Origin: Candidatus Krumholzibacteriota bacterium
Lineage (GTDB): Bacteria; Krumholzibacteriota; Krumholzibacteriia; JAJRXK01
Direction of reading: 5' to 3'
DNA length: 64,000 nucleotides
Assembly (NCBI GenBank): GCA_024276305.1
Contig: JAJRXK010000019.1
Span: forward strand, 43,294-107,293
Under the pieces are notes generated by a model that saw only the letters and a list, made by a program, of their open reading frames with translations, ran no database searches and was not told the origin of the DNA. Below are positions 2,437 through 55,439 of the stretch, piece by piece (positions within the stretch are counted from its first letter, which is position 1; the number at the start of each line of letters is the position of its first letter). The position numbers and the translations under genes are program-made.

Positions 2437-3633
2437 ATGGGCGGACCCATGGGCCGGATGACTTCAGTCATGGTGCGAAAAGGATCGAAGAGGACGGTCG
2501 TCCTCATCGCTCTCGCCGTGGGCCTCTCGAGTTGTGTCAGTCGGCTCGCTTCGGGCCCGTGGCCCTCGAGCAGCGACCGCGAAGTCGTCGGTTTGGACCA
2601 TCCTTCGTGGGAGACTCATCTCGCGAGTCTTCTCCCCTTTGCCGACCATCGGGTGGTCTTCTTCGGAGACCAACGCGCGTTGGCGGACGGCGAGTGGCAG
2701 GCCATGATCGAGGCGATCGTCGAACGGGAGGGGCGAATGGAGGCGTTGAGCCCCTTGATCGGGATCATCGACTCGGGAGACATCGTCTTCGACGGGAATC
2801 ATCGCGATCAGTTTCACATGCTGGCGGAGATTCTGGCTCCCCTGCGCCCGTGGCCCTACTTGGTGGGAGTCGGAAACCACGAGGTCCATGCCAATCGAGG
2901 AGCGAAGGCCCGCAGAAATGTTGTCGATTTCCTGGGCCCCTCGATCGGTCCCGAGTTCAGGGTCGACCGACTCTACTATCGCAAGGACGCGCCGGGGCAT
3001 CACCTCATCTTTCTCGACACCAACGATCTCGTCTACGGAGCGGACGGATCCAGAAGTCGCCGGATGGACCTCGACGACCGCGGCAGAGCGCAGATGCAGT
3101 GGCTGGTCCGAGAACTCGGATCCATCGACGAGGAGGAGTGGACCACAGTCATCCTGCACCATCCCTTTCTGACCTCGAGCACCAAGCACGAGGGCCACGC
3201 GCAGAAGGTATGGAGTCTGCGCTTCGAGGGACTGACCCTCCCTCAGATCCTGGCCGAAGGTGGGGTGGATCTGGTGCTCGCTGGCCATACCCACACCTAC
3301 GAGAGGTTCCACCTCCAGACGCGCACCGGCGCAGGATTCGACCTCATCAATGTATCGGGTCGTCCCCGGGGAGAATTCCTGGGAATTGGCAAGGGCGGAC
3401 GCCGGGCTCGACGCATCGCGGGAGAAGAGATCGCGGACCTGAAGCGCCGAGGTTGGAAGGACCTCGAGGGGTGGCGGATCGAACAGCTCGACGCCATGGT
3501 CGACGCCGAGGCGGACCAATGGGTAGAATTGAGGATCGCATCCGCAGACTCGGTGGTGGGGGAGGTCTTCTTCCTCAGAGATGGCCGAAGCGCCGTCAGC
3601 GGCGGATCCTTCATCCTTGGTGGCGCGGACTAG
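2437..3633 (+). CDS. Calcineurin-like metallophosphoesterase lipoprotein (purple-acid-phosphatase-like).
   Basis: Lipobox VGLSSC after MVRKGSKRTVVLIALA. Metallophosphoesterase motifs GDxxF/GDIVFDGNH, VGNHEV, GHTHTYER. Start ambiguous (ATG 2437/2449/2470); TAG stop. Confidence 0.75.
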   Translation: MGGPMGRMTSVMVRKGSKRTVVLIALAVGLSSCVSRLASGPWPSSSDREVVGLDHPSWETHLASLLPFADHRVVFFGDQRALADGEWQAMIEAIVEREGRMEALSPLIGIIDSGDIVFDGNHRDQFHMLAEILAPLRPWPYLVGVGNHEVHANRGAKARRNVVDFLGPSIGPEFRVDRLYYRKDAPGHHLIFLDTNDLVYGADGSRSRRMDLDDRGRAQMQWLVRELGSIDEEEWTTVILHHPFLTSSTKHEGHAQKVWSLRFEGLTLPQILAEGGVDLVLAGHTHTYERFHLQTRTGAGFDLINVSGRPRGEFLGIGKGGRRARRIAGEEIADLKRRGWKDLEGWRIEQLDAMVDAEADQWVELRIASADSVVGEVFFLRDGRSAVSGGSFILGGAD

Positions 3634-3855
3634 TCACGACCGGGAAAGCAGGTCGCTCACCTCTCCCTGAAGCGGGAATCGTCCGGTCTCGGCCTTGTCG
3701 TAGACGATGTCGCCGTCCACTTCGACTTCGAAGATCCCGCCGGAGCCTTCGATCAATTCGACTTCGACGGAGTGGGACTCGAGGATTTCGGCCGCCACCC
3801 GGGAGGCCTCGGGAAGGTAGTTTCAGACTCCGCAGTAGCGAATGACGATACGCAT
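3634..3855 (-). CDS. selW: SelW/Rdx-family selenoprotein (73 aa) with in-frame UGA read as selenocysteine in a CxxU motif.
   Basis: Minus-strand translation MRIVIRYCGV-U(TGA at +3823..3825)-NYLPEASRVAAEILESHSVEVELIEGSGGIFEVEVDGDIVYDKAETGRFPLQGEVSDLLSRS matches the bacterial SelW-like pattern (YCxxUNY...GGxFEVxVDG...GRFP). RBS GAGGGAA lies 5 nt upstream of ATG. A GC-rich stem-loop candidate follows the UGA (CCGAGGCCUCCCGGGUGGCGGCC). The ORF track misses it because of the TGA. Confidence 0.75.
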
Positions 3856-3885
3856 GGTTCCCTCTGGATCGCGGGGGTGGAGGTC

Positions 3886-3915
3886 GAGAAAAAGGGATCA
3901 CCGACTGGCGACCCC
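3886..3915 (-). terminator. Intrinsic terminator after tRNA-fMet (minus strand).
   Basis: Minus-strand GGGGTC-N10-GATCCC stem followed by TTTTTCTC. Confidence 0.45.
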
Positions 3916-3925
3916 TTCTTCGATT

Positions 3926-4002
<77 letters not shown>

Positions 4003-4021: not shown

Positions 4022-4408
4022 CTAATTCCGTCGCGTCTCCTTGTCAAGCCGAGGTGCGTCCTCTGAGGCATCGAGTACGTGGATGACCGTTTCCCCTTTG
4101 CGCTTCATCAGATAGCGCTCCCGAGCGACCTTCTCGAGGAGGGGGCTGGCGGGTCGCTGGATCTCGGTGACCTGCTGCTGAAGCTCGAGGGTGCGGGCTT
4201 GCAACTGGGCTGATTCCTCACGCAGCGCCTGCACGGCGTGCTCCTCCGCGCGCACCCGCAACCAGCCCGTCTCGCCGAAGAACAGGACCCAGATGGCACC
4301 GGTGACTCCGATCGATCCCAGAATCCACCGCGAGAGGTGGTGGCGACGCCGCCGGCCACCCTCGACACGGTAGAAACGCCGATTGGTCTTCGGGGAACGG
4401 CGCGGCAA
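4022..4408 (-). CDS. ftsB: FtsB/DivIC-like septum formation initiator (single TM + coiled coil).
   Basis: TM segment WILGSIGVTGAIWVLFF followed by a coiled coil (LQARTLELQQQVTEIQ). Conserved position immediately downstream of eno. Probable TTG start 2 nt after the eno stop; the upstream part of ORF 4022..4447 overlaps eno. Confidence 0.65.
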   Translation of the reverse strand: MPRRSPKTNRRFYRVEGGRRRRHHLSRWILGSIGVTGAIWVLFFGETGWLRVRAEEHAVQALREESAQLQARTLELQQQVTEIQRPASPLLEKVARERYLMKRKGETVIHVLDASEDAPRLDKETRRN

Positions 4409-4410
4409 GC

Positions 4411-5976
<1,566 letters not shown>

Positions 5977-10513: not shown

Positions 10514-11593
10514 TCAGTCCTTGCGACGCTTCAGAGCGCGGCCCCGAGGGGCCCCGCTTCGTCGTTCTTGGCGATGCACGAGTTGGCCGCAGGCCCCCGA
10601 AACCTCCCGGCCCCGGCTGTCCCTCACGGTGGCCACGATTCCGTGCTGCCAGAGGTGATCGACCATGGCGTCGATCCGCGTTGGAGATGGTCTTTGGCCT
10701 GCGAAGCTCTCGATGGGATTGAGCGGGATCAGATTGACCTTGAAAGGACCGCTCCGCGCCAGCGACACCAGGATCTTCGCCTGTGCCAGGTCGTCATTCT
10801 CGCCGGCGATGATCGCGCATTCCAATGTGACCTTCCGACGGGAGCTCCGGCCGTAGTCCGCGGCGGCTTGGAGCAGCTCGGCCACCGGCACCTGCCCGGC
10901 GACGGGCATGAGCCTTCGGCGATCCTCGTCTCGGCCCGTGGTCAAGGAAATCGCGAGTCCCACCGGGCGCTGAAGATCCCCGAGCGCGGAGATGCCTTCC
11001 ATCAGTCCCGATGTGCTCACGGTGATGCGTCGCGCTCCGATTCCGATCCCCTCTTCGTGCATGAGGATCCGCAGAGCGGGGAGCAGGGCCTCGAGGTTGT
11101 CGAAGGGCTATCCCATTCCCATGAACACGAGGTTGGGCTTGGAACGACCTGGGTTCAGGCGGGAGAGGAGTCGCACTTGTTCGACGATCTCGGCGGTGGA
11201 GAGCTGGCGAATGATCCCCATCCGGCCCGTGGCGCAGAAAACGCACCCCATTCGGCATCCGACTTGTGAGGACAGGCAGTAGGTGAAGTTTGCGTCCTCG
11301 CGGGGAATCGCGACCGCTTCGATGCGCGCGCCGTCCGCCAACGCGATCAGGTGCTTCGTCGATCCTCCAGCCGTGGACTCCGACGCCACCACCTGGAGGG
11401 GAGCCAATCCCGGGTGGCGGGACCACCGCTCCCGCAGGGCCTGCGGGAGGACGGTCACTTCGTCGAGGGTGGCGACATTCTGAACGTAGAGGGCGCGAGC
11501 GAGTTGCCGTCCTCGATATGCCGGCTGGCCTTCGTCTAGGGCGAAGTCCTCGAGTTCCTCGGGGCTGAGGTCGGTGAGAGTCTGGGGCAACAC
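10514..11593 (-). pseudogene. rlmN: rlmN (radical-SAM 23S rRNA/tRNA m2A methyltransferase) interrupted by a single in-frame TAG at the conserved Glu of the MGMGEPL motif.
   Basis: N-terminal ORF ends ...CxxxCxFCATG...NLVFMGMG, then TAG (complement of 11105..11107), then PFDNLEALLPALRILMHEEGIGIGARRITVSTSG...KVNLIPLNP...ACGQL in the same frame. Expected sequence is MGMG-E-P[LF]. Both ORFs share one reading frame, so this is a point nonsense change, not a frameshift. Probable GTG start 11593. Confidence 0.8.
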
Positions 11594-11614
11594 GGCATTC
11601 CCACTTCTCGAGTC

Positions 11615-11630
11615 GGGTGTCTTGACAGGC
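11615..11630 (+). promoter_or_regulatory. 16-mer GGGTGTCTTGACAGGC containing a TTGACA -35-like hexamer; identical copy at 29491..29506.
   Basis: Exact 16-nt repeat, both copies intergenic and oriented toward + strand genes (arsR-ntrC here; the M23 peptidase at the other copy). Confidence 0.3.
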
Positions 11631-11707
11631 TTGTCCCGTTGAGAGAAGTTCGGCGGGAGTTCCGTCACCACTCCATCGCCACTCCACGGGGAGGAAGGGC
11701 TGCGCCG

Positions 11708-12100
11708 ATGACCTCTTCGGTTCAAGATCCCATGCATGGTAGCGTGGATCGATCCGGCCCGCTCTCCTCCGCGAGGGCGGCCCTGCTGGCGGCAGTAGCC
11801 GACCCGGTGCGCCAGAGGATCCTCTTCGAACTCACCGAAGCGACGACCGTGGGGGAGCTGTGCCGCCGGTTGGACATGGCGCAGCCCCGGGTCTCTCACC
11901 ACCTCGCCGTGCTGCGTCAGGCAGGTTTGGTGGTGGCCGAGGCCCAGGGACGTCAACGGCCTCATCGCTGGGCCGAAGCTCCGGCGGGTTCGGATCTGGA
12001 GCGGATTCAGGACTTGTTGAGAAGTTGGAGCGGGGGCGAAAGCAGAACTCGTCCCCCTTCATCTCCCCAGGCTGCCAATCTCGAAGATTTCCTTCTGTAG
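11708..12100 (+). CDS. ArsR/SmtB-family HTH transcriptional regulator.
   Basis: LLAAVADPVRQRILFELTEATTVGELCRRLDMAQPRVSHHLAVLRQAGLVVAE wHTH motif. ATG 11708 with GGAGGAAGG RBS; the ORF-track N-terminal extension is unlikely. Confidence 0.7.
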   Translation: MTSSVQDPMHGSVDRSGPLSSARAALLAAVADPVRQRILFELTEATTVGELCRRLDMAQPRVSHHLAVLRQAGLVVAEAQGRQRPHRWAEAPAGSDLERIQDLLRSWSGGESRTRPPSSPQAANLEDFLL

Positions 12101-12142
12101 GGCCGAGAGAGGGTCGATGGACCACCCAGGAGAGACGAAGGC

Positions 12143-13513
12143 ATGACCGAAGCCAAGGCGCGGATCCTGATCGCGGATGACGAGGTGGCCATACGCCAGA
12201 GCCTTGGCAGCATCCTGGGTTACGAGGGTTTCGAAGTCTGCGAAGCCGAGAACGGGCCCGCGGCCCTGGCGAAATTGGCCGCAGAAAGGATCGATCTCCT
12301 CCTTCTCGATGTGAAGATGCCCCAGATGGACGGTTTCGAGGTCATCGCTCGGCTTCGCGAGGAAGGTCTGGATCTGCCAGTGGTGGTGATCAGCGGTCAC
12401 GATGCAGTCAGCAACGCGGTGGAGGCCATCAAACGGGGAGCCTACGATTTCCTGGAGAAACCCTTCAAGAAGGAGGAGCTGCTCGTTCGGGTGAACAACG
12501 CCCTCGAACACGGCCGAGTGCGCCGGGCGAATCGGGAGCTCCTCGAGAGCACGCGGTCCGGAATGCAGCTCATCGGAGACAGTCCCGCGATGCACGAGGT
12601 GAAGTCTCTCATCGAAAAGGTCGCTCCGACCCCGGCCCGCGTTCTCATCACCGGGGAGAACGGAACGGGCAAGGAGCTGGTGGCCAAGGCCATCCACGCC
12701 GCCTCGACCCGGTCCAAGGCTCCCTTCGTGGAGGTGAATTGCGCCGCATTGCCCGAGGAACTCGTCGAGAGCGAGCTCTTCGGTCACGAGAAGGGCGCCT
12801 TCACCGGGGCGCAGCGTCGTCGCGAGGGAAAGTTCGAACGGGCCCACGGCGGGACGCTCTTCCTCGACGAGATCGGGGACATGAGCCCTTCGGCCCAGGC
12901 CAAGGTGCTTCGAGCTCTCGAGGACCAACGGATCGAACGCGTGGGGGGATCGGGACCCATCGACGTGGATGTCCGAATCCTCGCGGCCACCAATCGGGAT
13001 CTCCAGGACGACGACCTCGGTTTTCGTCAGGACCTCTTCTTTCGTCTCAACGTGATCTCGATCCACCTTCCGGCCCTTCGGGAGCGGCCCGAAGACATTC
13101 CCGCCCTCTTCGACCACTTTCTGGCCCGGGCGGCGGTGGAGATGAAGCAGAAGCCCAAGCCCTTGGATCCAGAAGTAGTCAATAAGCTGATCGCATACGA
13201 CTGGCCGGGCAATGTTCGGGAATTGCGGAATCTGGCCGAGCGTCTGGCGATCGTGGCTCCCGCAGAGGGGATCCGGGTGGCAGATCTTCCCGCTTCCATG
13301 GGAGGCCGGGAAACGGTGAGGGGAGGGGCGGAGTTCCTCGATGCGCCGACCTTTCAGGACTTCAAGGCGGCGAGCGAGGCCGTTTTCCTGCAGGCCAAAC
13401 TGGCGGAGAACGACTACAACATCAGCCGCACCGCGGAGCAGCTGGAAATGCAGCGCAGCAACCTCTACAAGAAGATTCAACGCTACGACCTGCGGACATC
13501 ACAGAAGGACTGA
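12143..13513 (+). CDS. Sigma-54-dependent response regulator (NtrC family: receiver + AAA+ sigma-54 activator + Fis-type HTH).
   Basis: Receiver ILIADDEVAIRQSL...DLLLLDVKMPQMDGFEV. AAA+ domain GENGTGKELVAKAIH, GAFTGA, ESELFGHEKGAFTGA. C-terminal HTH. No histidine kinase gene nearby. Confidence 0.9.
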   Translation: MTEAKARILIADDEVAIRQSLGSILGYEGFEVCEAENGPAALAKLAAERIDLLLLDVKMPQMDGFEVIARLREEGLDLPVVVISGHDAVSNAVEAIKRGAYDFLEKPFKKEELLVRVNNALEHGRVRRANRELLESTRSGMQLIGDSPAMHEVKSLIEKVAPTPARVLITGENGTGKELVAKAIHAASTRSKAPFVEVNCAALPEELVESELFGHEKGAFTGAQRRREGKFERAHGGTLFLDEIGDMSPSAQAKVLRALEDQRIERVGGSGPIDVDVRILAATNRDLQDDDLGFRQDLFFRLNVISIHLPALRERPEDIPALFDHFLARAAVEMKQKPKPLDPEVVNKLIAYDWPGNVRELRNLAERLAIVAPAEGIRVADLPASMGGRETVRGGAEFLDAPTFQDFKAASEAVFLQAKLAENDYNISRTAEQLEMQRSNLYKKIQRYDLRTSQKD

Positions 13514-13544
13514 GAGAGCGACGGTGGTGATCGCGTTCTGGCGA

Positions 13545-13574
13545 TTGACAGCAACCCCACGGCGTACGTATCGT
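13545..13574 (+). promoter_or_regulatory. Sigma-70-like promoter candidate (TTGACA-N18-TATCGT) upstream of the small secreted protein gene.
   Basis: Hexamers read directly from the sequence. Confidence 0.3.
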
Positions 13575-13725
13575 AGTAGGGTCATCTCGTGGGCTGGAGT
13601 GGGCTGCAGCGGGATCGACGACCCGCCCGTCGTGGATCTGCAAGGCGGCCCCCCGTGGTCCTGACCAGAAGCGCCCTCGAAGGAGGGTGGGATGACAAGA
13701 TCCGAAACCTAGGGAGTACGAACCC

Positions 13726-14085
13726 ATGAAGAGCCACGTATCTGCCGGATTGGCTCTGGCCCTCGTGGTGCTGGTTCTGTTGAGTGCGGTGCCTTCGTCA
13801 GCATTCGCTGGCGACGGCGAAGAGGACTTGACCCTGGGATTGGTGCGACCCACGACGGTTGCGCCCACCGCAACGCGCGGTCTCCCCACCGGAGGTACTG
13901 ACCCCGGAACGGGTACCGTGAACGGTGATCCCGAGGATTGGTTGGGCGGACAGAATCTGAAGCCGGATTCGAATCCTGGCAAGAATCTGACGGCGCCCGA
14001 TCCTCCCAGTAGTCTCTTTGTCCAGATCCAGCAATGGTGGCAGTCGATGCTTCGCCTTTCCGCGGAGACCATGGCTGGCCGCTGA
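13726..14085 (+). CDS. Small secreted protein (119 aa, signal peptide, G/P/T-rich), unknown function.
   Basis: MKSHVSAGLALALVVLVLLSAVPSSAFA signal peptide. GGGAG RBS. Sits between the two sigma-54 activator genes. Confidence 0.5.
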   Translation: MKSHVSAGLALALVVLVLLSAVPSSAFAGDGEEDLTLGLVRPTTVAPTATRGLPTGGTDPGTGTVNGDPEDWLGGQNLKPDSNPGKNLTAPDPPSSLFVQIQQWWQSMLRLSAETMAGR

Positions 14086-14204
14086 CCCGAACCGGCGCCT
14101 GAATCCGATGCACCTGGAGGGTGCAGCAGGCACCTCGAAATCTCGCGCAATGATGGAATCATCGCGAGGCACCTTTGAACCCCTTCTCGCCCAAGGGATG
14201 CCCG

Positions 14205-17200
14205 ATGCAGGACTTTCGTGACGGCCGCGAACCGAGTTCTTCGTTGCCGCACAACTTTCACTCAGGTCCCGCCCTCTCCTTCGAGCGGCTCGAGGAGGTG
14301 GGCGACCTTCACTTCCACGCGGCAGCCTACACTTCTGCCGTGGACTACTACCGTACTGCTCTCGATGCTTCACCCGCCGATGCCGATGCGCAGTCGACGC
14401 TTCTCAGGATTCGGTGCAAGCTGGCCGATTGTTTTCGGGTGCAGGGGCAGCTTCGGCGGGCCCTCGAGGAGTTCGAGACGGCGTCCACGGAGGCCGCGGG
14501 ACTGGGGACGATCGAGACCGCAGCGACCGACGTGCGAATCGCCCGGGTACTGCAGGCTCAAGGCCGCTATTCGGATGCCATCGATCTCGCGACTCGATCC
14601 TTCACCGTCCTTTCTCTGACCGACCGACACGGTGACGTTGCCATCGCGCAGATGGTTCTCGGTATTGCCCACGCTTGCCGTGGTCAGCTCGTCAAGGCGG
14701 AGGAATTCTTCCAAGACGCGCTGTCGACCTATCGCCGGATCGGGGATGAGGTCTCTCAGGCCCATGTGCTCAACAACCTCGCGCTGCTGGCCAAGAGGAA
14801 TTGCCGGTGGACGCGGGCCCTCCAGCTCTACGAGCGGGCCGAGAAGCTCTTCCACCGCCACGGCGCAAATGTCGAAATCTGTGCGCTCTATCTGAACAAA
14901 GCGGTGCTCCTGAGAAAGACCGGTCATCGAGTCGAATCGATGGCGTCGGCGCTCCAAGGCCTGCGATTGGCCCGGACCCGTGGAGACCAGGGAGGAATCC
15001 TGCGTTTCGATCTGATCCTGGGACAGCTCAAGATCGACGAATCTGCCTTTGCCGAGGCCCAGGATTACCTCCTCGAGGCCCGGGTCCTGGCGGAATCCGA
15101 GGACTCCCGTCGTGATCTCGCCTTGGCGGATGAGTTCCTCGGGGATTTGATGTTCGCCAAGGGAGAGTTGGACGACGCGATGTCCAACTACGATCGTGCG
15201 GCGGAGAGAGCGCTCGAGCTGAGTCCCACCAACGATATTCTGGCCGAAGTCTCGCGACGTCGCGCCGAACTCCACCTCCGGCGCGAAGAGCCGGAGCTCG
15301 CACTCGAGGAAGTGCACCGAGGTGTGGAGCTGGTCGACGCTTCGGGTGAGGAGTTCGAACGCGGCTTCTTGGAGCGGACGCGGGGGGGGGCCCTCACTCT
15401 CCTGGATCATGTCGAGGAGGGCTTGATCTCCTACCGCGAGAGCCTCGACACCTTCCGGCGGCTGCATCTGGATCTGGAGGTCTTCCGCACTCTGCTGTGC
15501 TTGTCCGAGGCGTTGGTTCGGCGCGGGGGAGAGAAGAACCTCGTCGTGGCCCGGGCTCGGTTGAACGAAGCCCTGGCCTTGGAGCTGCCCCCGGAGAGCG
15601 GAGTGCGTCCCGGACGGGCTCAGTTTGCATTGGCTCGCGTGGAGTTGTCCCTGGGGAACTTCGACGAGGCCTTGATCACTCTCTGCGATTTGGAACGCAG
15701 CGCTGGCGATGACGATGCACTGCACGATGCGGAGCTGTCCCTGCTCCGAGAGGAAATCGAACACGCGGTGTCGGCGGATGCCAGGGGTGGGGTGGAGTCC
15801 TTCCACTTCGTGCGTGATCTCTCGGATCGAGTGGCTCCGAACGGGCGACACGACGAGGCGACGATCTCGTCGACGCTGGTGACCGCAGCCGAGCAATTGG
15901 GGGCGCAGCGTGCGTTCGTGGCCCTTCGCGACGAGCGTGGCAGGGTACGGATTCTTGCGAACCACGAGATGGCGCTCGTGCACGCGCGCGCTCTCGCGCT
16001 GCGAGCGTGGGAGCAATTGTCGGGTCAGGAGCCGGGCCACGCTCGGGTGTGGTCGCAGGCCGCATCGGATCCGGCGTGGATCGGCGGGGTGGCCGAGAAC
16101 CGGCGTCCTCTCGATTCCGTCGTGGGGATACGACTCTTCGACGCCGCATCGGGAAGGGAAGGGCTCTTCTACTTCGATGCGGCGGTGAAGGACAGGATCC
16201 CCTTCAGTCCCGACTCCATCGCCATGGCGTCGGCTTGTGTGGCCATGTTGGGCGAAAGCATCCTTCACCGCGTCCCCTCCGACAGCCTGCTCGACGATGA
16301 AGCCAGTCCCTTCTCTCGCTTTCTCACCCAGAGTGATCGGGTTCGCGAGGTTCTGAGTCTCTGTGCGAAGGTGGCCCCGAGTCCCTACACCGTGTTGTTC
16401 ACCGGAGAGACCGGGACGGGCAAGGGCCTGTTGGCCCGGATCATCCATGATCTGAGTCCGCGCTGCGACCGCAGCTTCGTCACCGTCAATTGCGCGGCTA
16501 TTCCGGAGACTCTCCTCGAGAGCGAGCTCTTCGGACACGTTCGGGGGGCCTTTACCGGGGCCGACCGTGACAAGGATGGACTCATCGTCTCGGCGGAGGG
16601 CGGGACGCTCTTCCTGGACGAGATCGGGAAGATGCCTCTGCCCATGCAGGCGAAACTCCTACAGTTCCTCGACTCGCGCGAGGTGCGTCCGGTGGGGTCT
16701 TCGCAGATGCGATCCGTCGATGTCCGGGTCATTTGCGCCAGCAAGCGCAATCTCGAGACCATGATCACCACCGGCGAGTTCCTGGAGGACCTCTACTACC
16801 GCCTCTTGGATTTTCCGGTGTCCATTCCCCCTCTGCGCGACCGAGGAGACGACATCGTACTCCTGGCGCGGGAGTTCGTGGCGCGAAGTTGCGAGGACCT
16901 GGGGCGACCGGAGCCGGTGTTGACTCGGGGTTTCGTCTCGAGGCTGCGGGCCTACGATTGGCCGGGCAATGTGCGGCAGATGGAAAAGGTCATGCGGCGG
17001 GCGGTGGTGCTCGCTGCTTCGGAGGAGCGCCTGCGAGAGATGCATCTCCCCGCCGATCTGGGTCCGGCCGCCGTGGACGATTCCGACGGCGATCCCCCGG
17101 AGTTTCGCCCGCTCAAGGAGCAGGTCGCGGAACTCGAGCGGAGCGTGCTCCGGCGCAGTCTGGAATCGACGGGATGGAATCGTTCGGAGACCGCCCGACG

Positions 17201-17267
17201 GCTGAAGATTTCCTATCCGACCCTGCTGCAGAAGATCCGCAGTTATGGGTTGAAGGAAAACTGCTGA
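14205..17267 (+). CDS. Large TPR-repeat / GAF-like / AAA+ sigma-54-dependent transcriptional activator (bEBP without receiver domain).
   Basis: N-terminal TPR-like helical repeats (AAAYTSAVDYYRTALDASP..., LNNLALLAKRNCRWTRALQLYERAEKL...). Central GAF-like region. Sigma-54 interaction domain GETGTGKGLLARIIH...ESELFGHVRGAFTGA...GTLFLDEIG. C-terminal Fis HTH (RSETARRLKISYPTLLQKI). ATG 14205 preferred over TTG 14175. Confidence 0.8.
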   Translation: MQDFRDGREPSSSLPHNFHSGPALSFERLEEVGDLHFHAAAYTSAVDYYRTALDASPADADAQSTLLRIRCKLADCFRVQGQLRRALEEFETASTEAAGLGTIETAATDVRIARVLQAQGRYSDAIDLATRSFTVLSLTDRHGDVAIAQMVLGIAHACRGQLVKAEEFFQDALSTYRRIGDEVSQAHVLNNLALLAKRNCRWTRALQLYERAEKLFHRHGANVEICALYLNKAVLLRKTGHRVESMASALQGLRLARTRGDQGGILRFDLILGQLKIDESAFAEAQDYLLEARVLAESEDSRRDLALADEFLGDLMFAKGELDDAMSNYDRAAERALELSPTNDILAEVSRRRAELHLRREEPELALEEVHRGVELVDASGEEFERGFLERTRGGALTLLDHVEEGLISYRESLDTFRRLHLDLEVFRTLLCLSEALVRRGGEKNLVVARARLNEALALELPPESGVRPGRAQFALARVELSLGNFDEALITLCDLERSAGDDDALHDAELSLLREEIEHAVSADARGGVESFHFVRDLSDRVAPNGRHDEATISSTLVTAAEQLGAQRAFVALRDERGRVRILANHEMALVHARALALRAWEQLSGQEPGHARVWSQAASDPAWIGGVAENRRPLDSVVGIRLFDAASGREGLFYFDAAVKDRIPFSPDSIAMASACVAMLGESILHRVPSDSLLDDEASPFSRFLTQSDRVREVLSLCAKVAPSPYTVLFTGETGTGKGLLARIIHDLSPRCDRSFVTVNCAAIPETLLESELFGHVRGAFTGADRDKDGLIVSAEGGTLFLDEIGKMPLPMQAKLLQFLDSREVRPVGSSQMRSVDVRVICASKRNLETMITTGEFLEDLYYRLLDFPVSIPPLRDRGDDIVLLAREFVARSCEDLGRPEPVLTRGFVSRLRAYDWPGNVRQMEKVMRRAVVLAASEERLREMHLPADLGPAAVDDSDGDPPEFRPLKEQVAELERSVLRRSLESTGWNRSETARRLKISYPTLLQKIRSYGLKENC

Positions 17268-21168: not shown

Positions 21169-21198
21169 TTGACCGTGGGTGGGGACGATTCCTATACT
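21169..21198 (+). promoter_or_regulatory. Sigma-70-like promoter candidate TTGACC-N18-TATACT.
   Basis: About 30 nt upstream of ATG 21227. Confidence 0.4.
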
Positions 21199-21226
21199 GC
21201 GCCGTCTTCATCCCCGTGAGGTAGCC

Positions 21227-24200
21227 ATGTCGATTCCAGCGCTGAGAGGTCCCGGGCTCGTCATCGCGATTGCAGCCCTGACTCTCGCCTCGGCCGGGGG
21301 TCGCAGCGCCGGGGCGGAACCGGTGGCCTTCCCCTCCCTCGATCGGATGAAGGAGGCGACCCGCCTCTTGGTAGAAGGAGGACCGGGATTGAGTCCGCGC
21401 AACATGAAGGACGTTCAACTCGATCGCCTTCTCCGCAAAGCGGCTCCATCCCAGCTCCGAGTATTGGTCGTCGGTTGCGATTTCAGTGACAGCTTGATGT
21501 GGGGGCGTGACCGCAGCGCCTTCGTGGGCTGGCCGGAGGGCCGGCGCATCGCGCAGCGGATTCCGGGCACCGACATTCCCATGTTCACAGCTCACGACTC
21601 CACCTACTTCGATCTGCAGATGAGTCGGGTGAACGAATACTTCCGGAGCGTGAGCTTCGACCGTTTTCGTCTGCAGTGGGATGTGTACGGGTCAATCGTC
21701 AATCTCCCGCGACCGATGGGATGGTACGGCGATCCGGACAGTAGTGATGTGCGGACCGTCGCGATGGCCCAGGAAGTCATCGATGCGGTGGATGCGGAAA
21801 TCGATTTCGGAGCTTACGACACCTTGGTGTTGATCCACGCGGGAGCAGGGAGCGAGACGGATATTCTCGGAGACAGTCCACAGCAGATCCCCAGCAACTA
21901 CCTCGATCGGCGCGACTTTTCCAGGGCATCGGAGGCGGGGCTCTTGGCTCAACCGCAGTTGCTCAGTGGCGAGGGCCCGGTCGAGCACGTCTTGATCCTA
22001 CCCGAAGCCGAAAGCCAGGATCCTTTCCCCGAGGCGGGACTGTCGGGGTTCTTCGACGTCCTGGGCGTCTATTGCTTCGAGTTCGGGCTGCGGCTCGGAA
22101 TGCTCAGTTTGACCGACTTCACCCCCGAAGGGCGTCCCGACAGTCAGGGGATCGGGAACTTCGGACTGATGGGGTTCGGACTCTTCACCGGCCTGTCGAT
22201 CGTTCCTTCCGCGCCGAGCGCGATCAATCGCTACCTCATGGGTTGGGTGGATGCGGTCGAGGTGAGAGCGGATGCCGACCTGCGTCTGAGGGCGATGGGA
22301 CCCACGGTGGCGGATGGAGATACACTTCTGATCAAAGTTCCGATCAACGATCGGGAGTACTGGCTTCTGGAGTACCGGCTCCAGGATCCCAACGGCGATC
22401 TCTTCTACACCTTCGCCGACTCCAACGGGGATCGAGTGCCGGACTATTGGGATGCCGACAGCAGCCTTGGCAACGGCCGTCCCACTTCATCCTACGATCC
22501 CGCCACCGACTGGTGGGAGAGCACGCTGAATTCGGAGTGGGACTATTTCATGAGCGAGAATCCGGCGCGCAGTGACGACCGCTGCATGCGAGCCGGTGGC
22601 AGCGGAGTCTACATTTATCACATCGACGAACGCGTCATCGAGAACTCGATTCTGTCTGGAGTGAACACCATCAACGCAGACCCGGATCACAAGGGAGTCG
22701 ATGTCGAGGAAGCCGATGGCATTCAAGACCTCGACTCGTCTCGGCCGAGCGAGTACCTCCTGGGCTGGGACGGAGATGCTTGGCGGGGCGAGGGCTCGAC
22801 CGACTTCGGACCGGACACTCTTCCCGCGACGGACACTGCTTCGGGTCTGCCCACCGGGATCCGCTTTTCTCGCTTCTCCACGGTGACGGTGGACACCCTG
22901 CCCCGAGATGATCAGGGCAATTGCACGGGATTCTCCTATCGACCGGCGATGACCTTTCGAGTCGAGTTTCTCGGGTCCAGTGGCGGGCAATCCCTGGCCC
23001 ACCGCCTCTCGTTTCGAGGAATCGCTCCGCTTTCGGCGGCACGAGTCGTGGATCTGGGATCGGGCCCTTCCGATCCCAGCCCGGATGGTCTGCTCGAGAT
23101 CGTCGCCCTGGCGGATTCGGGTCGGGTGCTGGCATTCGACCGGGCCCTGGGGGACTGGACTGACGGGGACGGAGATCCCACCACCATCGGAGTCCTGGCG
23201 GTGGTGAACGGTCCGTCCCGAGTCGCGCGTTGGATCGGTGACCCTGCGGTGGTGGACTTCGACGGCGATGGCGACCTCGAGGTGCTGGCGGCGGCAACGA
23301 CGGGAATCATCGCCCTCTCCTTCGACGGGTCGGAGTTGATCGATGGAGATCGGAATCCGGCAACCCGCGGGGTGATGTGGACCTCGGCGCAGTGGGCTCC
23401 GGTGAGCGCGCCGGCGATCCTCGACGATCCCGATCGCAGCTGCATGCAGGTGGTCAGCGATGGCAGCCGGATTGCGGCGCTACGACTGAAGTGGGTCTCG
23501 GGAGTGGTGGAGGCAACGCTCTCCTCTGCGGTGAGCGGCCGGTTGCGGGGGCAGCCCGCTCTGGTGGAGGAGCCCGAGCCCCGCATCGTGGTCCCCTGGT
23601 CGGATGAGGAAGGGCCCGGATTTCTCTTCTTTCCCACGGGGTCGACCGAGGGGATTTCGAGAATGCGGACCGATCGTGCCCCGGCGGACCTGCCGGTGGT
23701 GACCTGGAAAGAGGCGCCGGTCGGGCCGGTGGTCCTCTGGACGGATTCGTTGGGTACGAGTCATCGCACCGAGATTCCGCCGAAGAACGCCGGATCGCTC
23801 GGCTCCGTGGCAGACGTGGCCTGGGAAGACCGCCGAGGTGACGAGGTGCCCGGAGCGCCGAGCATCCTCGTGGGTGCTGCACCCCGAGCGGCAGCGACGG
23901 ATGTGGTATGGGCCCGAGCTGCGGGAGGGGAACTCCATGCCCTCGATGCATCTCTTCGACTTCGTTCGGGATTTCCCATGAGTCCCCTGAGGAGCACCCC
24001 GGTTGCGGTGACCGATTCCTTGGTGGCGCCGCCCGCCATGGTCGATCTGGACGGGGATGGTCGGATCGAATTGATCTGGCACGAGGGCGAGGGGGCCTTG
24101 CATGCGGTGGACCTCGAGGGACGGGAACTCGTGGGCTGGCCCATCGCGGGGCCCGCGGAACCCTTGGGAGGTCCGATTCTTGCCGATCTGGACGGAGATC

Positions 24201-24688
24201 TCCTTCTGGAAATGGTCCTGATGGGCCGTTTCGAGTCCCTCGAAGCGGTGGATTCGCCAGGGCGTGGTTTCGCTTCGCAGGCCCGGGGGGAAGTGAGGAT
24301 CTATGATCTAGGGACGAGGGCGGACAGCTACGCGCCCGTGCGCCTGGGCGCGGTGGGCCTTCGAAATCAGGGGATCGTCCGCGCGGGTCCCGTCCGTGCT
24401 CCGGCGGGGTCGGCAGCCTTGGACGAGGCGAGCGTGGCCTTGCAGCCCAATCCTGCCGTGGGCTCTACTCTGCGGGTACGAGTGGTCGCAGGACGATCGG
24501 GGCCGGTCCGCGCGATTCTCTACAACCTCGAGGGCCAGGAAGTGGCAGCGAGCGCGGCGGTGTTCACGGAGTCCGCGAGTGCTTTCGATGAGTCGATCGA
24601 TATTTCCGGGCTCCGCTCGGGGCTGTATGTTTGTCGAATCGTTTCGGGTTCCGAATCGATTCTCAGGTCCTTCGCGGTGGCTCGATGA
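21227..24688 (+). CDS. 1153-aa secreted protein with FG-GAP/VCBS-like Ca-binding repeats and FlgD-Ig/T9SS-type C-terminal sorting domain.
   Basis: Signal peptide MSIPALRGPGLVIAIAALTLASAGG. Repeats VDFDGDGDLEVL, VDLDGDGRIELIW, ADLDGDLLLEMVL. C-terminus ALQPNPAVGSTLRVRV...ILYNLEGQEVA...SGLYVCRIVSGSES. No HExxH seen. Confidence 0.75.
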   Translation: MSIPALRGPGLVIAIAALTLASAGGRSAGAEPVAFPSLDRMKEATRLLVEGGPGLSPRNMKDVQLDRLLRKAAPSQLRVLVVGCDFSDSLMWGRDRSAFVGWPEGRRIAQRIPGTDIPMFTAHDSTYFDLQMSRVNEYFRSVSFDRFRLQWDVYGSIVNLPRPMGWYGDPDSSDVRTVAMAQEVIDAVDAEIDFGAYDTLVLIHAGAGSETDILGDSPQQIPSNYLDRRDFSRASEAGLLAQPQLLSGEGPVEHVLILPEAESQDPFPEAGLSGFFDVLGVYCFEFGLRLGMLSLTDFTPEGRPDSQGIGNFGLMGFGLFTGLSIVPSAPSAINRYLMGWVDAVEVRADADLRLRAMGPTVADGDTLLIKVPINDREYWLLEYRLQDPNGDLFYTFADSNGDRVPDYWDADSSLGNGRPTSSYDPATDWWESTLNSEWDYFMSENPARSDDRCMRAGGSGVYIYHIDERVIENSILSGVNTINADPDHKGVDVEEADGIQDLDSSRPSEYLLGWDGDAWRGEGSTDFGPDTLPATDTASGLPTGIRFSRFSTVTVDTLPRDDQGNCTGFSYRPAMTFRVEFLGSSGGQSLAHRLSFRGIAPLSAARVVDLGSGPSDPSPDGLLEIVALADSGRVLAFDRALGDWTDGDGDPTTIGVLAVVNGPSRVARWIGDPAVVDFDGDGDLEVLAAATTGIIALSFDGSELIDGDRNPATRGVMWTSAQWAPVSAPAILDDPDRSCMQVVSDGSRIAALRLKWVSGVVEATLSSAVSGRLRGQPALVEEPEPRIVVPWSDEEGPGFLFFPTGSTEGISRMRTDRAPADLPVVTWKEAPVGPVVLWTDSLGTSHRTEIPPKNAGSLGSVADVAWEDRRGDEVPGAPSILVGAAPRAAATDVVWARAAGGELHALDASLRLRSGFPMSPLRSTPVAVTDSLVAPPAMVDLDGDGRIELIWHEGEGALHAVDLEGRELVGWPIAGPAEPLGGPILADLDGDLLLEMVLMGRFESLEAVDSPGRGFASQARGEVRIYDLGTRADSYAPVRLGAVGLRNQGIVRAGPVRAPAGSAALDEASVALQPNPAVGSTLRVRVVAGRSGPVRAILYNLEGQEVAASAAVFTESASAFDESIDISGLRSGLYVCRIVSGSESILRSFAVAR

Positions 24689-24728
24689 AACGAAGCCGCC
24701 GATGCAATGGCAATACGAGGAGAATCTC

Positions 24729-25668
24729 CATGATGCATCGCCCGCTCAATCTGGCCTTGGCAGGCCTCCTCGGCGTGGCTGTTCTCAGCTTCGCCCATCC
24801 TTCGACCGTGGACGCGGGCCAGCCTGGCGACGCGGGTCTGTTGTCGATGCGCTTGGGAATGGGGGGACGATCCGGAGGCATGGGAGAAACCGGAGTGGCG
24901 ACCACCCAGGATGCTACGGCGATGTACTGGAATCCGGCGAACATGGCCTATGCCAAGGGCACGCAGATCGCAGTGCAGCACATGGAGTACTTCGGACTCT
25001 TTCGCAAGGAAACCATGACCCTCGCTCACGAGACCGACTACGGCAGCTTCGGACTGCTCTTCAGCGGTTTCTACAGTGAGGACATCGATCGGACTGCACC
25101 GGATCCGGTGGGAGTGACCCAGGGGAGTTTTCGACCCTACGACGTGGTCGTGGGGGTCGGCTATGCGCGGGCCTTCGATCAGTTCTCTCTGGGGATCGTC
25201 ACCAAGTTCGTCTACGAGCGCATCGATGCCTATTCCGGGAGCGCGGGGGCGATCGACCTGGGAGTGACCCACCACGCGGCGATCGAAGGTCTCACCCTCG
25301 CGGCGGCAGTGCAGAACTTGGGGTCTTCGATGACTCTCAATCAGGAGAGCTTCGATCTGCCCCGCACCTTTCGCGCGGGTCTGGCCTACCGTCCCATGCC
25401 CCTCAGCTGGGCCGGTAGATTCCTGGGCACGGCCGAAATCGTCCTTCCCAATGATGGCAATAGTCGCCTCCATGCCGGGCTCGAGATCGAGCTCGATCCA
25501 TCCTTCCATCTGCGAGTGGGACACCGCTTCCAGTACGACACCTGGGGCCCGACCTTCGGAGCAGGTTTCCAGCGTGCGGGCCTACGAGTGGACTACGCCT
25601 ATATGGCCAACGACAACGATTTCGACACCACTCACCGATTCTCGCTCAGCTTGACCTCTCGCGACTAG
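24729..25668 (+). CDS. FadL/PorV-like outer-membrane beta-barrel protein.
   Basis: Signal peptide MMHRPLNLALAGLLGVAVLSFA. N-terminal GMGETGVATTQDATAMYWNPANMA motif as remembered from the FadL/PorV family. Alternating beta-strand pattern to the C-terminal RFSLSLTSRD. GAGGAG RBS. Confidence 0.55.
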
Positions 25669-46999: not shown

Positions 47000-47273
47000 G
47001 GCGACTGCGACTCATGGTAAGTAGCACATGGGATTCTGTGTTTGCGGAACACGACTTCCCTCTTTCCGGTGAATCCAAATTCTCGACGCCGAAACGATGG
47101 GCCTTGCGAGGCTCGGAGTTTCTAACCGGCCTGGGGACACGGGGTGCTTGCACTCCCGGACAACCAGGACAACCCGTGCCAACTGCCACCCCGTATGTCG
47201 ATCTCACCTTCGCCGGTGTTTCGGCATAAGTCTTTCACATCTTCGCCATCTACAAACGATGGGGGGACAAAGC

Positions 47274-50200
47274 ATGAAGAGATTCGTATCTCTGACGTTG
47301 TGCTTCGCTCTGGTCGCCTTTGCCGGTTCCGCACTGGCAAGGTCCGGCGCGAGCAGCACGATCGACCGGGATCTGAGCGACCTCGAATTCGCGATTCCGG
47401 ATGAGAACACAGTTCTGACGAGCTCGACCAGCGATGCTGCGTTGCGCTTCAAGGAAGCCGCTGGTCCGGATACGTTTGCCCTCTATGGGTACACGAATGA
47501 TCCGGTCAACGGTAAGTTCAATGACATCAACGGTGTCATCCCTCAATGGCAGGGCTGGATGGGCGTCGACATGACCGACGCGCTTCCGTTCTGGCAGGTC
47601 TCCACGTTCAATGCCGCGAATCTGAACAACCACGGCGCGGGGAACCTCGCGGCATGGTCCGGCCAGACCGCTGCTCAGCAGCCCGGTTGGGTCGCTGCTC
47701 CGGGTTATGGCAATGGCTGGAACGACATCCTGATCTTCGAAACCCCGGCGTTGTCCAACACCGTCGCGGGCCAGACGGTCGGGCTGGATTTCTTCTTCAA
47801 CCATGACTCCGAGCCCGGCTACGACTTCCTCAATGTCGAGTACGACTCGGCGGGGACGTGGGTCAACATCTACTCGGTTGACGGCGACAGCAAGGACACC
47901 ACCGGTGTCTTCGCGGCTCCGGGTGTGCAGTTCTCCGCCGTCGGCGGGTCGGTTGTCTACGGTGGCGGCGACTACGGCGGACCGAACAACGATCAGATCC
48001 GTCTGCGGATCCGTTTCCAGTCCGATGGTGCATGGTCCAATCAGGACGGTCTGTGGCCGACCAGCGGCGGTGCCGTCCAAGTCGATGACATCACTGTCAG
48101 CTGGAATGACGGCGTTGGTCCTCAGACGGCCTTCGAGGACTTCGAAAGCGGTGCCTTCACCGTTGCCACGGGTGCCTGGCACCCGCAGAAGTCGGTCTTC
48201 GCGGGCGACTTCGCGCAGATCCTCCCTCGCCTGAACGACATCGATCCCTGTCAGGAGGACATCACTCCTCTGCTGATGTTCATCGATCAGAATCAGGTCG
48301 TCGGGAATGCGTCCAGTGCCGCGTTGATTCCTGGTTATCCCACCCAGACCGGTGGTGCCACGTCGATCAACCCGTCCAACAGCTATGGGCCGGGTGGCTA
48401 CGTCGTGAACTTCAACGGTGGTCTGAGCCAGGGCCAGGTTCGTCTTTGGAACATGGCCTGGAGCCCGGAAATCACCTGGGATCTCCCGACCACGGCTGAT
48501 GACGGCGTGGACTTCGCGGGTGCGCGGATGCGTTTCGACGTGTGGCGTGACCTTCAGTTCATCGACGGAATGTTCTACTTCTGGCAGGTGCGTTCGAGCG
48601 TGGACGGCGTTGCTTGGAAGGATTGGGCGGACTTCAACACCGTGTACTACGGTGGCGGCGTCACGACCTGGTTGAACTCCGACAATGACATCACCCCGCT
48701 CCTCGAGCCCGGGCTGCAGAAGCTTCAGGTCTCGGTGGGTGTCTACGATCTGGCCGGAATCTTCCCGGGCACGATCGGTGATGATGCCTCTCCTTCGCCG
48801 GCCTTCGACAACATTGCGGTCATCAAGTACCGCATTTCGGGTCCGACGATCTCTCAGCGCGTTTTCTATCGGGTTCAGGACGGCTTCCCGGTTTCGGGTA
48901 GCATCGACGTGAGCACGCAGGCTGCGCGCGATGGTCTGGACATTCCGTTCAGCATGGCCAACGATGTCGCGACGGGATCCACGAATCCGGTCAACGACGC
49001 CGGTGACTCGACCTTCGCGGACATCCAAGCCGTGATTCCCGGGTCAGCCCTGACGGACATGCGGATGTTCTGGGTCCTCGACAAGAATCCTCTCTTCGAG
49101 GATGCCATCCGTACCGTTCCTGCGCGTGCGAAGGACGTGAACGTCGTTGCCGGCGCCACTCAGTGGACCGGTGAAGTGCTTCACGACACCACCACCACCA
49201 GCAATGGTAACGTCATCAAGGATCGTTATTTCTTCGATCTGCCGGATACCAACTTCATGTATCCCGGTGACGTGCTGCGGATCTACTACCAGGCCACGGA
49301 CGATGGTGGGCGAGTCACGACTCTGCCCAGCTCGACCACCGGATTCTTGACGGGCAATGGCTACAGCAGTGTCTTCACGGTTCGCGGTCTTCCGTCGATC
49401 TCCGATGTGGCTGGAACCCAGCCGCCGAAGCTGGTGCTGAATGACTTCGGTCATCGCGGCAGTGAGAACGATTTCCTCTCGGCTCTGGGCCAGTTGGGCT
49501 TCGTGGAGGGCGTCGACTACGACACCTACACCACGACCGCGCCTAGCTCCGGTCTGTCCAATGGAATCGGTTCGGCGGGTGTGCATGGTGCGAATGCGAA
49601 TCAGCTGGCCGGGTACGACACCATCGTGTACCTGATCGGCAACCTGAGCACCTTCATCCTCAGTGATGGTTCCAATAATGGTGGAAACGACAAGGCCAAC
49701 GACCTCGCCGTGCTCACTTCGTGGCATGGCCTGGCCGGTCCTCGTAACATGGTTCACTTCGGTGACAACGTTGTCAGCGGTCTGATCGCGGACAGCGCAG
49801 CGGGTGCGACCTATGTTGCGACGATTCTGAACACCAACCTCACCGACAACGATGTCCGGGACGAGATTGGCAATCAGACCGCGCCGCTGGTGAAGCCTCT
49901 GGACCCGGCCTTCGCGACCGAGTTCGTGGCCTATGGTGGCTGTCTCTCCATCAACCAGTTCGACAGCATCACTCCCGCTGCCGGCTCCATTGCCGGTCAT
50001 GGATTCTGGGATCCGGGGACGGCCAGTGTCTACGCTGGTCCCGCGGCTTCGGTGATCTATGATCGCCTCGAGCCCCCGACGACGGGTGATCGCAAGGTGG
50101 ACATGGTCTTCCCGTACAGCTTGGGCTTCGTCTACGATCCCCGTGCGAAGGCTGCTGGGAGCACGACCTCTGCCACCGAGCTGCTCCGCGAGATCTTCGA

Positions 50201-50528
50201 CTACTTCGCAGTTTCCAGTGGCGTTCCTGGTGGCGAGACCGCCGCGCCGAGTGCGAAGTTGATCTCGATGGATGTGTATCCGAACCCGTTCAACCCGCAG
50301 ACCACCGTCAAATTCGCCAACCTGCCGGCCAAGGCCAGCGGTTCGGTGAAGGTGTTCAACCTGCGCGGTGAGCTCGTGGCGACGCTGCACAGCGGCGAGT
50401 TCTCGAAGTCCTCGTTCGTCTGGAACGGTACCGACAACAACGGTTCCTCCGTGGCGAGCGGCGTCTACATGATCGAGGGTCAGGCCGACGGCTTCCGTCA
50501 GGTGGTCAAGGTCGCTCTCGTGAAGTAG
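47274..50528 (+). CDS. 1084-aa secreted protein with FlgD-Ig/T9SS-type C-terminal sorting domain, function unknown.
   Basis: Signal peptide MKRFVSLTLCFALVAFAGSALA. C-terminus VYPNPFNPQTTVKFANL...VKVFNLRGELVA...WNGTDNNGSSVASGVYMI. Confidence 0.75.
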   Translation: MKRFVSLTLCFALVAFAGSALARSGASSTIDRDLSDLEFAIPDENTVLTSSTSDAALRFKEAAGPDTFALYGYTNDPVNGKFNDINGVIPQWQGWMGVDMTDALPFWQVSTFNAANLNNHGAGNLAAWSGQTAAQQPGWVAAPGYGNGWNDILIFETPALSNTVAGQTVGLDFFFNHDSEPGYDFLNVEYDSAGTWVNIYSVDGDSKDTTGVFAAPGVQFSAVGGSVVYGGGDYGGPNNDQIRLRIRFQSDGAWSNQDGLWPTSGGAVQVDDITVSWNDGVGPQTAFEDFESGAFTVATGAWHPQKSVFAGDFAQILPRLNDIDPCQEDITPLLMFIDQNQVVGNASSAALIPGYPTQTGGATSINPSNSYGPGGYVVNFNGGLSQGQVRLWNMAWSPEITWDLPTTADDGVDFAGARMRFDVWRDLQFIDGMFYFWQVRSSVDGVAWKDWADFNTVYYGGGVTTWLNSDNDITPLLEPGLQKLQVSVGVYDLAGIFPGTIGDDASPSPAFDNIAVIKYRISGPTISQRVFYRVQDGFPVSGSIDVSTQAARDGLDIPFSMANDVATGSTNPVNDAGDSTFADIQAVIPGSALTDMRMFWVLDKNPLFEDAIRTVPARAKDVNVVAGATQWTGEVLHDTTTTSNGNVIKDRYFFDLPDTNFMYPGDVLRIYYQATDDGGRVTTLPSSTTGFLTGNGYSSVFTVRGLPSISDVAGTQPPKLVLNDFGHRGSENDFLSALGQLGFVEGVDYDTYTTTAPSSGLSNGIGSAGVHGANANQLAGYDTIVYLIGNLSTFILSDGSNNGGNDKANDLAVLTSWHGLAGPRNMVHFGDNVVSGLIADSAAGATYVATILNTNLTDNDVRDEIGNQTAPLVKPLDPAFATEFVAYGGCLSINQFDSITPAAGSIAGHGFWDPGTASVYAGPAASVIYDRLEPPTTGDRKVDMVFPYSLGFVYDPRAKAAGSTTSATELLREIFDYFAVSSGVPGGETAAPSAKLISMDVYPNPFNPQTTVKFANLPAKASGSVKVFNLRGELVATLHSGEFSKSSFVWNGTDNNGSSVASGVYMIEGQADGFRQVVKVALVK

Positions 50529-50671
50529 AACTTCGTGCAATCTTGAATCTTCGGATTCGAGAGGGTCGGCGGGACTTAGGTCCCGCCGATTCCTTTTGGC
50601 CGCGGGCGGAGGGATGGCATAAGTCCTTGTTCAAGTTGCGCTTTCCGGTCTGATTGGGGCGGGGGCAGGTG

Positions 50672-50701
50672 TTGACACTCCCCGTGGGCCACCCCTATAT
50701 T
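50672..50701 (+). promoter_or_regulatory. Promoter candidate TTGACA-N18-TATATT.
   Basis: Best sigma-70-like promoter in the window; about 100 nt upstream of the lipoprotein gene start. Confidence 0.45.
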
Positions 50702-50816
50702 TCGGTACCTCGCTCGGGATGATGTGGGGCCGGCCGACCGACCCCAGCGGGTTCGTGGGTCCGTTTTCTCGGATCATTTTGTCCTTTTCACCGACCTCAT
50801 GAAGGGGTCTCTTTTC

Positions 50817-52961: not shown

Positions 52962-53055
52962 GTCGGGGATCACCATGGGAAACGATCGGCAGTCGAGCAC
53001 ATTACTCCCCCTAGCATCGCCAGGTGACGTCGTTGGACGGAACAAGAGGTGGATC

Positions 53056-55404: not shown

Positions 55405-55439
55405 ACGGGTTCCTTGACGCCGCGAGGCGAGGAGTGTCG

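Follow-up and report, generated by a model that had tools for sequence, protein, structure and literature searches.

A Predicted SelW-like Selenoprotein Gene with a Conserved In-Frame TGA and a SECIS-like Hairpin in a Krumholzibacteriota Contig

The stretch of Krumholzibacteriota DNA analysed here (64 kb in total, hereafter the window) very probably contains, on its minus strand, a functional gene for a 73-residue SelW-like protein of the Rdx family, in which an in-frame UGA is genuinely decoded as selenocysteine (Sec). We estimate the probability of this reading at about 93%. At the sequence level, it is carried by three lines of evidence, namely the family membership of the protein, the conservation of the UGA, and a covarying hairpin located at a fixed spacing from it. 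The dependence of this decoding on SelB would follow from what is established for Sec decoding in bacteria. The gene is an ordinary, mis-annotated CxxU member of the well-known bacterial SelW-like family. As such, it brings nothing new to the field: descriptions of the family, the CxxU motif, and the SECIS type date back to 2005.

Gene Structure and Family Assignment

The features of the locus are listed in Table 1. Translation of the minus strand from 3855 to 3634 gives MRIVIRYCGV*NYLPEASRVAAEILESHSVEVELIEGSGGIFEVEVDGDIVYDKAETGRFPLQGEVSDLLSRS*, which in the read-through form becomes MRIVIRYCGV-U-NYLPEASRVAAEILESHSVEVELIEGSGGIFEVEVDGDIVYDKAETGRFPLQGEVSDLLSRS. The internal TGA is codon 11, located three codons past Cys8, in the motif I-R-Y-C8-G-V-U11-N-Y. 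The frame is otherwise intact; the ATG is present, and there is neither a frameshift nor a second premature stop. The original prediction of a 73-codon minus-strand ORF, intact only if the TGA is read through, was therefore correct in its coordinates and its motif, and the Rdx patterns quoted in it are both found in the translation as GSGGIFEVEVDG and ETGRFP.

Table 1. Positions of the selW-like gene, its decoding signals, and its upstream neighbours in the window.
Feature	Position	Strand	Description	Basis
selW-like (Rdx family) CDS	3634..3855	minus	73 codons including one Sec codon	translation, HMM scores
Terminal TGA	3636..3634	minus	stop of the selW-like gene	translation
In-frame TGA	3823..3825	minus	predicted Sec, U11 of C8-G-V-U11	translation, family alignment
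TGC codon	3832..3834	minus	Cys8, resolving cysteine of CxxU	translation, family alignment
GTG codon	3796..3798	minus	start of the 54-aa product according to ORF callers	ORF list, catalogue, A2 columns 37-39
GAGG	3861..3864	minus	putative Shine-Dalgarno-like element, 5 nt before the ATG at 3855	read from sequence
SECIS-like hairpin	3790..3808	minus		family alignment A2, RNAalifold, entropy, local energy
Terminator-like hairpin	3888..3921	minus	in the tRNA-fMet/selW gap; 15 pairs, tetraloop, 3' U-run	
Initiator tRNA-Met (CAT)	3926..4002	minus	upstream neighbour	ARAGORN; Rfam tRNA, 66.7 bits
ftsB/DivIC	4022..4447	minus	upstream of selW	

Standard ORF calling splits the gene, as had been expected. 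At this locus, the mechanical ORF list has a single entry, an ORF of 54 aa with a GTG start (3634..3798), and the same truncated product (P0001) is the sole form of the window gene in the 5.8-billion-protein catalogue. The false GTG start falls in the loop and 3' stem of the SECIS-like hairpin.

For HMM scoring, U was replaced by C in the window protein, which scores 68.2 bits with Pfam Rdx (PF10262; cut-off 22.6, E = 7e-19), with residues 2-70 aligned to positions 1-72 of the 74-position profile, and 50.8 bits with TIGR02174 CXXU_selWTH (cut-off 34.2). The NCBIfam equivalog model NF041051 (SelTWH_Campy), 'SelT/SelW/SelH family (seleno)protein', gives 93.3 bits versus a cut-off of 88. The assignment to SelW/Rdx, for which an HMM check had been proposed, thus stands above the curated cut-offs of all three models; the term "unannotatable", which had been applied to the gene, is too strong in view of the NF041051 score. 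In agreement with the family, the CxxU redox motif is located near the N-terminus, right after the first beta-strand.

The contribution of the region around the TGA can be seen when X is placed at the Sec position as a variant. The full frame then scores 61.1 bits with Pfam Rdx. The truncated ORF alone reaches 42.6 bits, with its match limited to profile positions 20-72. It lacks 19 N-terminal residues, ten of which precede the TGA, and these add 18.5 bits, which indicates that this stretch, including the ten codons before the TGA, is family-specific coding sequence.

A PDB sequence search matched the solved CxxC Rdx proteins 2fa8 (Atu0228, E = 6.7e-12), 3dex (SAV_2001), 2ojl, 2oka, 2p0g, and 2obk, as well as human MIEN1 (2ljk); these proteins and mammalian SelW (2npb) have the same domain. 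The CxxC of 2fa8 and 3dex aligns onto the CxxU of the window, and the motif region can be compared residue for residue ('RIAIRYCTQCNWL' in the solved CxxC type versus 'RIVIRYCGVUNYL' in the window). The solved bacterial CxxC proteins are about 105 aa in length and carry Cys, whereas the window protein has 73 aa and Sec. From its homology to the solved members (PMC3527542), the window protein would be expected to adopt a thioredoxin-like fold.

Conservation of the TGA among Relatives

A genome scan revealed five relatives in MAGs assigned to Verrucomicrobiales (two), Planctomycetales, Deltaproteobacteria, and Fimbriimonadaceae. In metagenomes, 484 relatives were confirmed, and the best 80 of them were kept. 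The set compared here therefore consists of 86 sequences, i.e., the window and 85 relatives (five genome-derived and the best 80 of the 484 metagenome sequences), and the relatives belong to at least four other bacterial lineages.

Within this set of the window, the five genome relatives, and the best 80 of 484 metagenome relatives, a TGA occupies the U codon in 86 of 86 sequences, so that its conservation at the redox position holds for every relative examined. The C position is a Cys codon (TGC or TGT) in 85 of the 86, the exception being L001, which has TGA, and in nearly all of the 86 a start codon is found ten codons before the TGA. Compared with L006, the closest relative, the ten codons before the UGA of the window are conserved, and the differences are synonymous or conservative. 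Homologs have Sec or Cys at the UGA position (Cys in the solved structures and in a few catalogue entries), with coding conservation on both sides of it.

This pattern bears on the alternative in which an ordinary CxxC Rdx protein had its Cys codon (TGC/TGT) turned into TGA, either by faulty sequencing or assembly or by a recent nonsense mutation. CxxC forms do exist, both among solved structures (2fa8, 3dex) and, in a few cases, in the catalogue (P0056 and P0094, for instance). Against this, the TGA is kept in all 86 sequences, which originate from many assemblies (including the best 80 of 484 from metagenomes), and RNA-level constraint acts on the hairpin downstream of it. Because of this complete retention, a sequencing error or a pseudogene is effectively excluded, and we regard such an explanation as very improbable.

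SECIS-like Hairpin Downstream of the TGA

The conserved core of the hairpin (3807..3791) consists of six pairs and a loop of 5 nt and starts 15 nt after the UGA. It was studied in a gapless alignment of 74 distinct sequences, the window included (A2), where the consensus of the helix and loop is GCCGCC-AGUCU-GGCGGC. Paired cells make up 90.8% of the helix in this alignment, and the level falls to 24-62% when the partner is slid by 1-3 columns; none of 500 column shuffles reached the observed pairing values. Double (compensatory) changes were found in four of the six pairs of A2 (23 cells), with C-G replaced by U-A or G-C, G-C by U-A or A-U, and C-G by A-U. An independent prediction by RNAalifold gave the same helix.

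Synonymous variation is suppressed in the hairpin. The entropy of third codon positions is 0.21-0.90 bits within the hairpin versus 1.33-1.91 bits in the flanking regions. All 74 sequences of A2 have G as the second base of the loop (position 3800 in the window), and the base after it is U in 68 of them. Since this G is invariant while the codon containing it encodes Ser, Arg, or Gly, the constraint acts on the RNA and not on the protein.

In bacteria, the SECIS comes right after the UGA, and its small apical loop contains a G (PMC1088965, PMC2398784, PMC1794560). The stem-loop described here likewise follows the UGA directly and has a small G-containing loop, and the element at 3808..3790 fits a bacterial selenocysteine insertion sequence. 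The search for a SECIS downstream of the UGA, which had been proposed as a check, thus led to a conserved hairpin with covariation in most of its pairs and an invariant loop G.

The element of the window itself reads GGCC-U-CC[CGGGU]GG-C-GGCC and has an extra closing G-C pair (3808:3790); its local energy is -8.4 kcal/mol. It includes one U.C mismatch at columns 31:41, where 30 of the 74 sequences have no pair. The 17-nt core of the window is the fourth weakest of 74 and is weaker than the family median. The CGGGU loop is shared by the window and only one other of the 74 sequences, and the loop codon CGG occurs in three of the 74. Folding of the single sequence of 69 nt after the window UGA gave z = 0.09, no better than shuffles; in sequence with a GC content of 63%, such a fold is uninformative, and comparative analysis was used instead. 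Rfam, searched at gathering thresholds and at E <= 10, gave no match to a SECIS family and reported tRNA only.

UxxU Variants and Representation in Protein Catalogues

Three sequences have TGA at both redox positions, in the arrangement TGA-GGN-ATG-TGA, which corresponds to Y-U-G-M-U-N-Y: L001 (3019-3030), L086 (289-300), and L087 (79-90). They originate from three independent assemblies, namely a Verrucomicrobiales MAG, an ENA metagenome contig, and a TARA Oceans scaffold, and in each of them the hairpin is kept 15 nt after the second TGA. Two of the three are recorded as WxxW in the protein catalogue (P0014, P0098). The searchable literature yielded no description of UxxU in SelW-like proteins; UxxU is mentioned there only for a Prx-like family. 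The window gene is an ordinary CxxU form and does not belong to this variant.

Possibly, the short SelW-like proteins of about 70-75 aa represent a clade that is effectively obligately Sec-dependent, with one family-specific SECIS at a fixed distance of 15 nt and a recurrent UxxU sub-variant. We put this forward tentatively and at somewhat less than even odds; as regards obligate Sec use, it is based on the TGA being present in 86 of 86 sequences (with the best 80 of 484 from metagenomes) of distant bacterial lineages.

The state of the family in protein catalogues was surveyed using the best 150 representatives of 50%-identity clusters related to the truncated ORF (P0004-P0153) in a library of 1.8 billion proteins. 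Of these 150 closest representatives, 134 (median length 57 aa) are devoid of the redox motif, and eight have Trp at the Sec position. True CxxC forms, such as P0056 and P0094, number about five of the 150. The entries with W are most likely due to gene calling with a table in which TGA encodes Trp. Several long tandem-repeat proteins among them (P0004, P0006, P0008, P0137) look like spurious multi-stretch matches. With the motif absent from 134 and replaced by a Trp form in eight of the best 150 representatives, the SelW-like family is evidently recorded largely in broken form.

Genetic Code and Selenocysteine Machinery

The W entries raise the question of a genome-wide reassignment of TGA to Trp or Gly (genetic codes 4 and 25), as CxxW and WxxW forms make up the eight of 150 catalogue representatives with W at the Sec position. 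The window itself argues against this. TGA ends 33 of the 40 ORFs called in it, including those of enolase and selW, and where a TGA joins two ORFs of the same frame (four cases), the two are simply neighbouring genes, e.g., MgtE/RecO. The genome has a GC content of 63%, which likewise speaks against reassignment, and the W entries have the more likely origin in gene callers given above. As TGA serves as a stop for 33 of the 40 window ORFs, an altered genetic code is excluded, and of all the alternatives we consider it the least probable.

The machinery for Sec is absent from the window, in accordance with the original prediction. ARAGORN and Rfam detected no tRNA-Sec in the 64 kb, Pfam scans of the 40 window ORFs found no SelA, SelB, or SelD domains, and regular expressions for SelA, SelD, and GTPase motifs had zero matches in the window. 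The ORFs bounded upstream by TGA were also scanned for other conserved genes with an in-frame TGA in the window, and only selW was found. The selA, selB, selD, and tRNA-Sec genes are presumably located elsewhere in the genome.

The absence of the sel genes and tRNA-Sec from the 64 kb would also be compatible with a UGA that simply terminates translation, for example after a loss of the Sec machinery in the lineage; the locus would then be a decaying relic, or only the 54-aa fragment starting with GTG would be produced. The hairpin, with its below-median stability and uncommon loop, can be read in the same way, and a GAGG lies 8 nt upstream of the GTG at 3798. Such a relic would hardly be expected to retain an intact frame with its ATG, a Shine-Dalgarno-like GAGG, and no frameshift or second premature stop. 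Moreover, the ten codons before the UGA are conserved with L006 through synonymous and conservative differences, the mismatch of the hairpin is offset by the additional G-C pair 3808:3790, and the 54-aa fragment would be devoid of strand 1 and of the entire redox motif (Rdx profile positions 1-19). Termination at the UGA is thus improbable, and Sec decoding is the preferred explanation.

If the UGA is decoded as Sec, the following course of translation can be proposed. Translation would begin at the ATG at 3855, and the ribosome would reach the UGA at codon 11. The hairpin 3808..3790 would act as a SECIS and recruit SelB-GTP-Sec-tRNA(Sec), leading to the insertion of Sec instead of termination. 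After 62 further codons, the second UGA (3636..3634), which has no SECIS after it, would terminate translation. In the product, a thioredoxin-like domain of minimal size, Cys8-x-x-Sec11 would be exposed past the first strand. Cys8 and Sec11 would most likely cycle between the selenol/thiol and selenenylsulfide states, as in a thiol-dependent oxidoreductase. This specific redox role, suggested by the family, is much less certain than Sec decoding.

Genomic Context

The order eno-ftsB-tRNAfMet-selW on one strand had been described correctly, according to ARAGORN and the domain matches of the ORFs; enolase, located upstream on the same strand, was recognized by its C-terminal domain (E = 5e-130). 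In the Rfam alignment, C1:A72 of the tRNA-Met(CAT) is a mismatch and its anticodon stem is of the GGG/CCC type; we take both to be the marks of an initiator tRNA.

The gap between the tRNA and selW contains the terminator-like hairpin given in Table 1, and the fold of 3925..3856 has an energy of -29.7 kcal/mol (z = -2.99). An analogous hairpin with a T-run is found at 135-165 in L006. The consensus terminator scan reported no sites, the hairpin at 3921..3888 included. The AGUC loop of this hairpin resembles the SECIS loop; the likeness was judged to be coincidental, as the loop of L006 differs there. Upstream of the tRNA, a promoter-like TTGACA-17 nt-TAGGTT can be noted on the minus strand (window 4047-4019); it lies about 16 nt before the tRNA and overlaps the ftsB stop (4024..4022). 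Identical hexamers with identical spacing precede the tRNA-Met in L006 (6-34). The consensus promoter scan missed this element because its -10 hexamer matches at only three of six positions.

L006, the closest relative (66% identical), has the same layout of promoter-like element, tRNA, hairpin, and selW. A nearby tRNA-Met was found in none of the 59 other loci scanned, so the adjacency of tRNA and selW is common to the window and L006 only. Since only L006 shares it, this adjacency reflects synteny within the lineage, and a single operon is unlikely. Given the terminator-like hairpin and the separate promoter-like element of the tRNA, the eno, ftsB, tRNA-fMet, and selW genes need not form one operon. 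No family-wide conserved neighbour gene was detected in 75 non-redundant loci, where shadow ORFs of selW and sub-lineage synteny were seen. Because the synteny is confined to sub-lineages, the neighbours give no clue to the function or substrate.

On the other side, a convergent metallophosphoesterase gene of the plus strand abuts selW. Its stop TAG (3631..3633) and the selW stop TGA (3636..3634) are separated by zero bases, and the consensus scan found no terminator-like site between the two genes.

Some other features of the window can be mentioned. An rlmN-like radical-SAM gene (RlmN_N and Radical_SAM domains; 10514-12058, minus strand) has an in-frame TAG at 11108-11110. It reads 'NLVFMGMG*PFDNLEALL', and the frame runs on for 197 codons past the TAG. 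RlmN presumably has Glu at the interrupted position (GMGEP), and the TAG is probably a GAG-to-TAG error or the sign of a pseudogene. Large predicted secreted proteins that end in FlgD_ig or Por_Secre_tail domains (type IX secretion sorting) are encoded at 1079-2374, 21173-25668, and 47073-57851, and the gene for one of them has a PorV/UPF0164-like neighbour. The region 12101-17267 encodes two sigma-54 activators. Such genes hint at an uncultured bacterium resembling the FCB group, with a GC content of 63%.

Comparison with Known Systems

In E. coli fdhF, the textbook case of a bacterial SECIS, the hairpin has the apical part GCA-GGUC-UGC, its stem is 11 nt from the UGA, and a bulged U is obligatory. 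The hairpin found here is similar in that it lies within the coding sequence at a fixed short distance from the UGA and, in the family consensus GCC-AGUCU-GGC, has G-U in the apical loop. The differences are the spacing between UGA and stem, which is 15 nt here versus 11 nt, the lack of an obligatory bulged U here, and the presence of GGG in the window loop in place of GU.

A closer counterpart is provided by the bacterial SelW-like selenoproteins described by Zhang, Gladyshev, and colleagues (PMC1088965, PMC1794560, PMC2398784). With their CxxU motif, they outnumber every other prokaryotic selenoprotein family in the Sargasso Sea and Global Ocean Sampling (GOS) data (PMC1088965, PMC2398784, PMC1794560). 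The GOS data contain 427 Sec forms of SelW-like proteins versus 56 Cys forms (PMC2398784), and few Cys homologs occur in Sec-using organisms (PMC1794560). In eukaryotic SelW, the SECIS is located in the 3' UTR (PMC1088965).

The window gene resembles these bacterial proteins in its length (about 70-75 aa), its N-terminal CxxU with a UGA-encoded Sec, the small number of Cys-form homologs, and the SECIS hairpin with a small G-containing loop within the coding sequence, just past the UGA. Nothing of substance differs. In detail, the window loop is CGGGU while the loop usual in the family is NGUNU, a U.C mismatch interrupts the window stem, and the adjacency to tRNA-fMet is specific to the lineage of the window.

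Implications for the Family and the Organism

The immediate consequence of this analysis is a corrected annotation, as the public catalogue entry represents a 54-aa fragment that begins within the SECIS hairpin. Beyond the single gene, a very common selenoprotein family is mostly mis-recorded in databases. If the reading of the UxxU sequences is true, UxxU would be a potential diselenide motif encoded by two UGAs nine nucleotides apart and served by one bacterial SECIS. For the organism, the presence of the selW-like gene would imply the use of selenocysteine.
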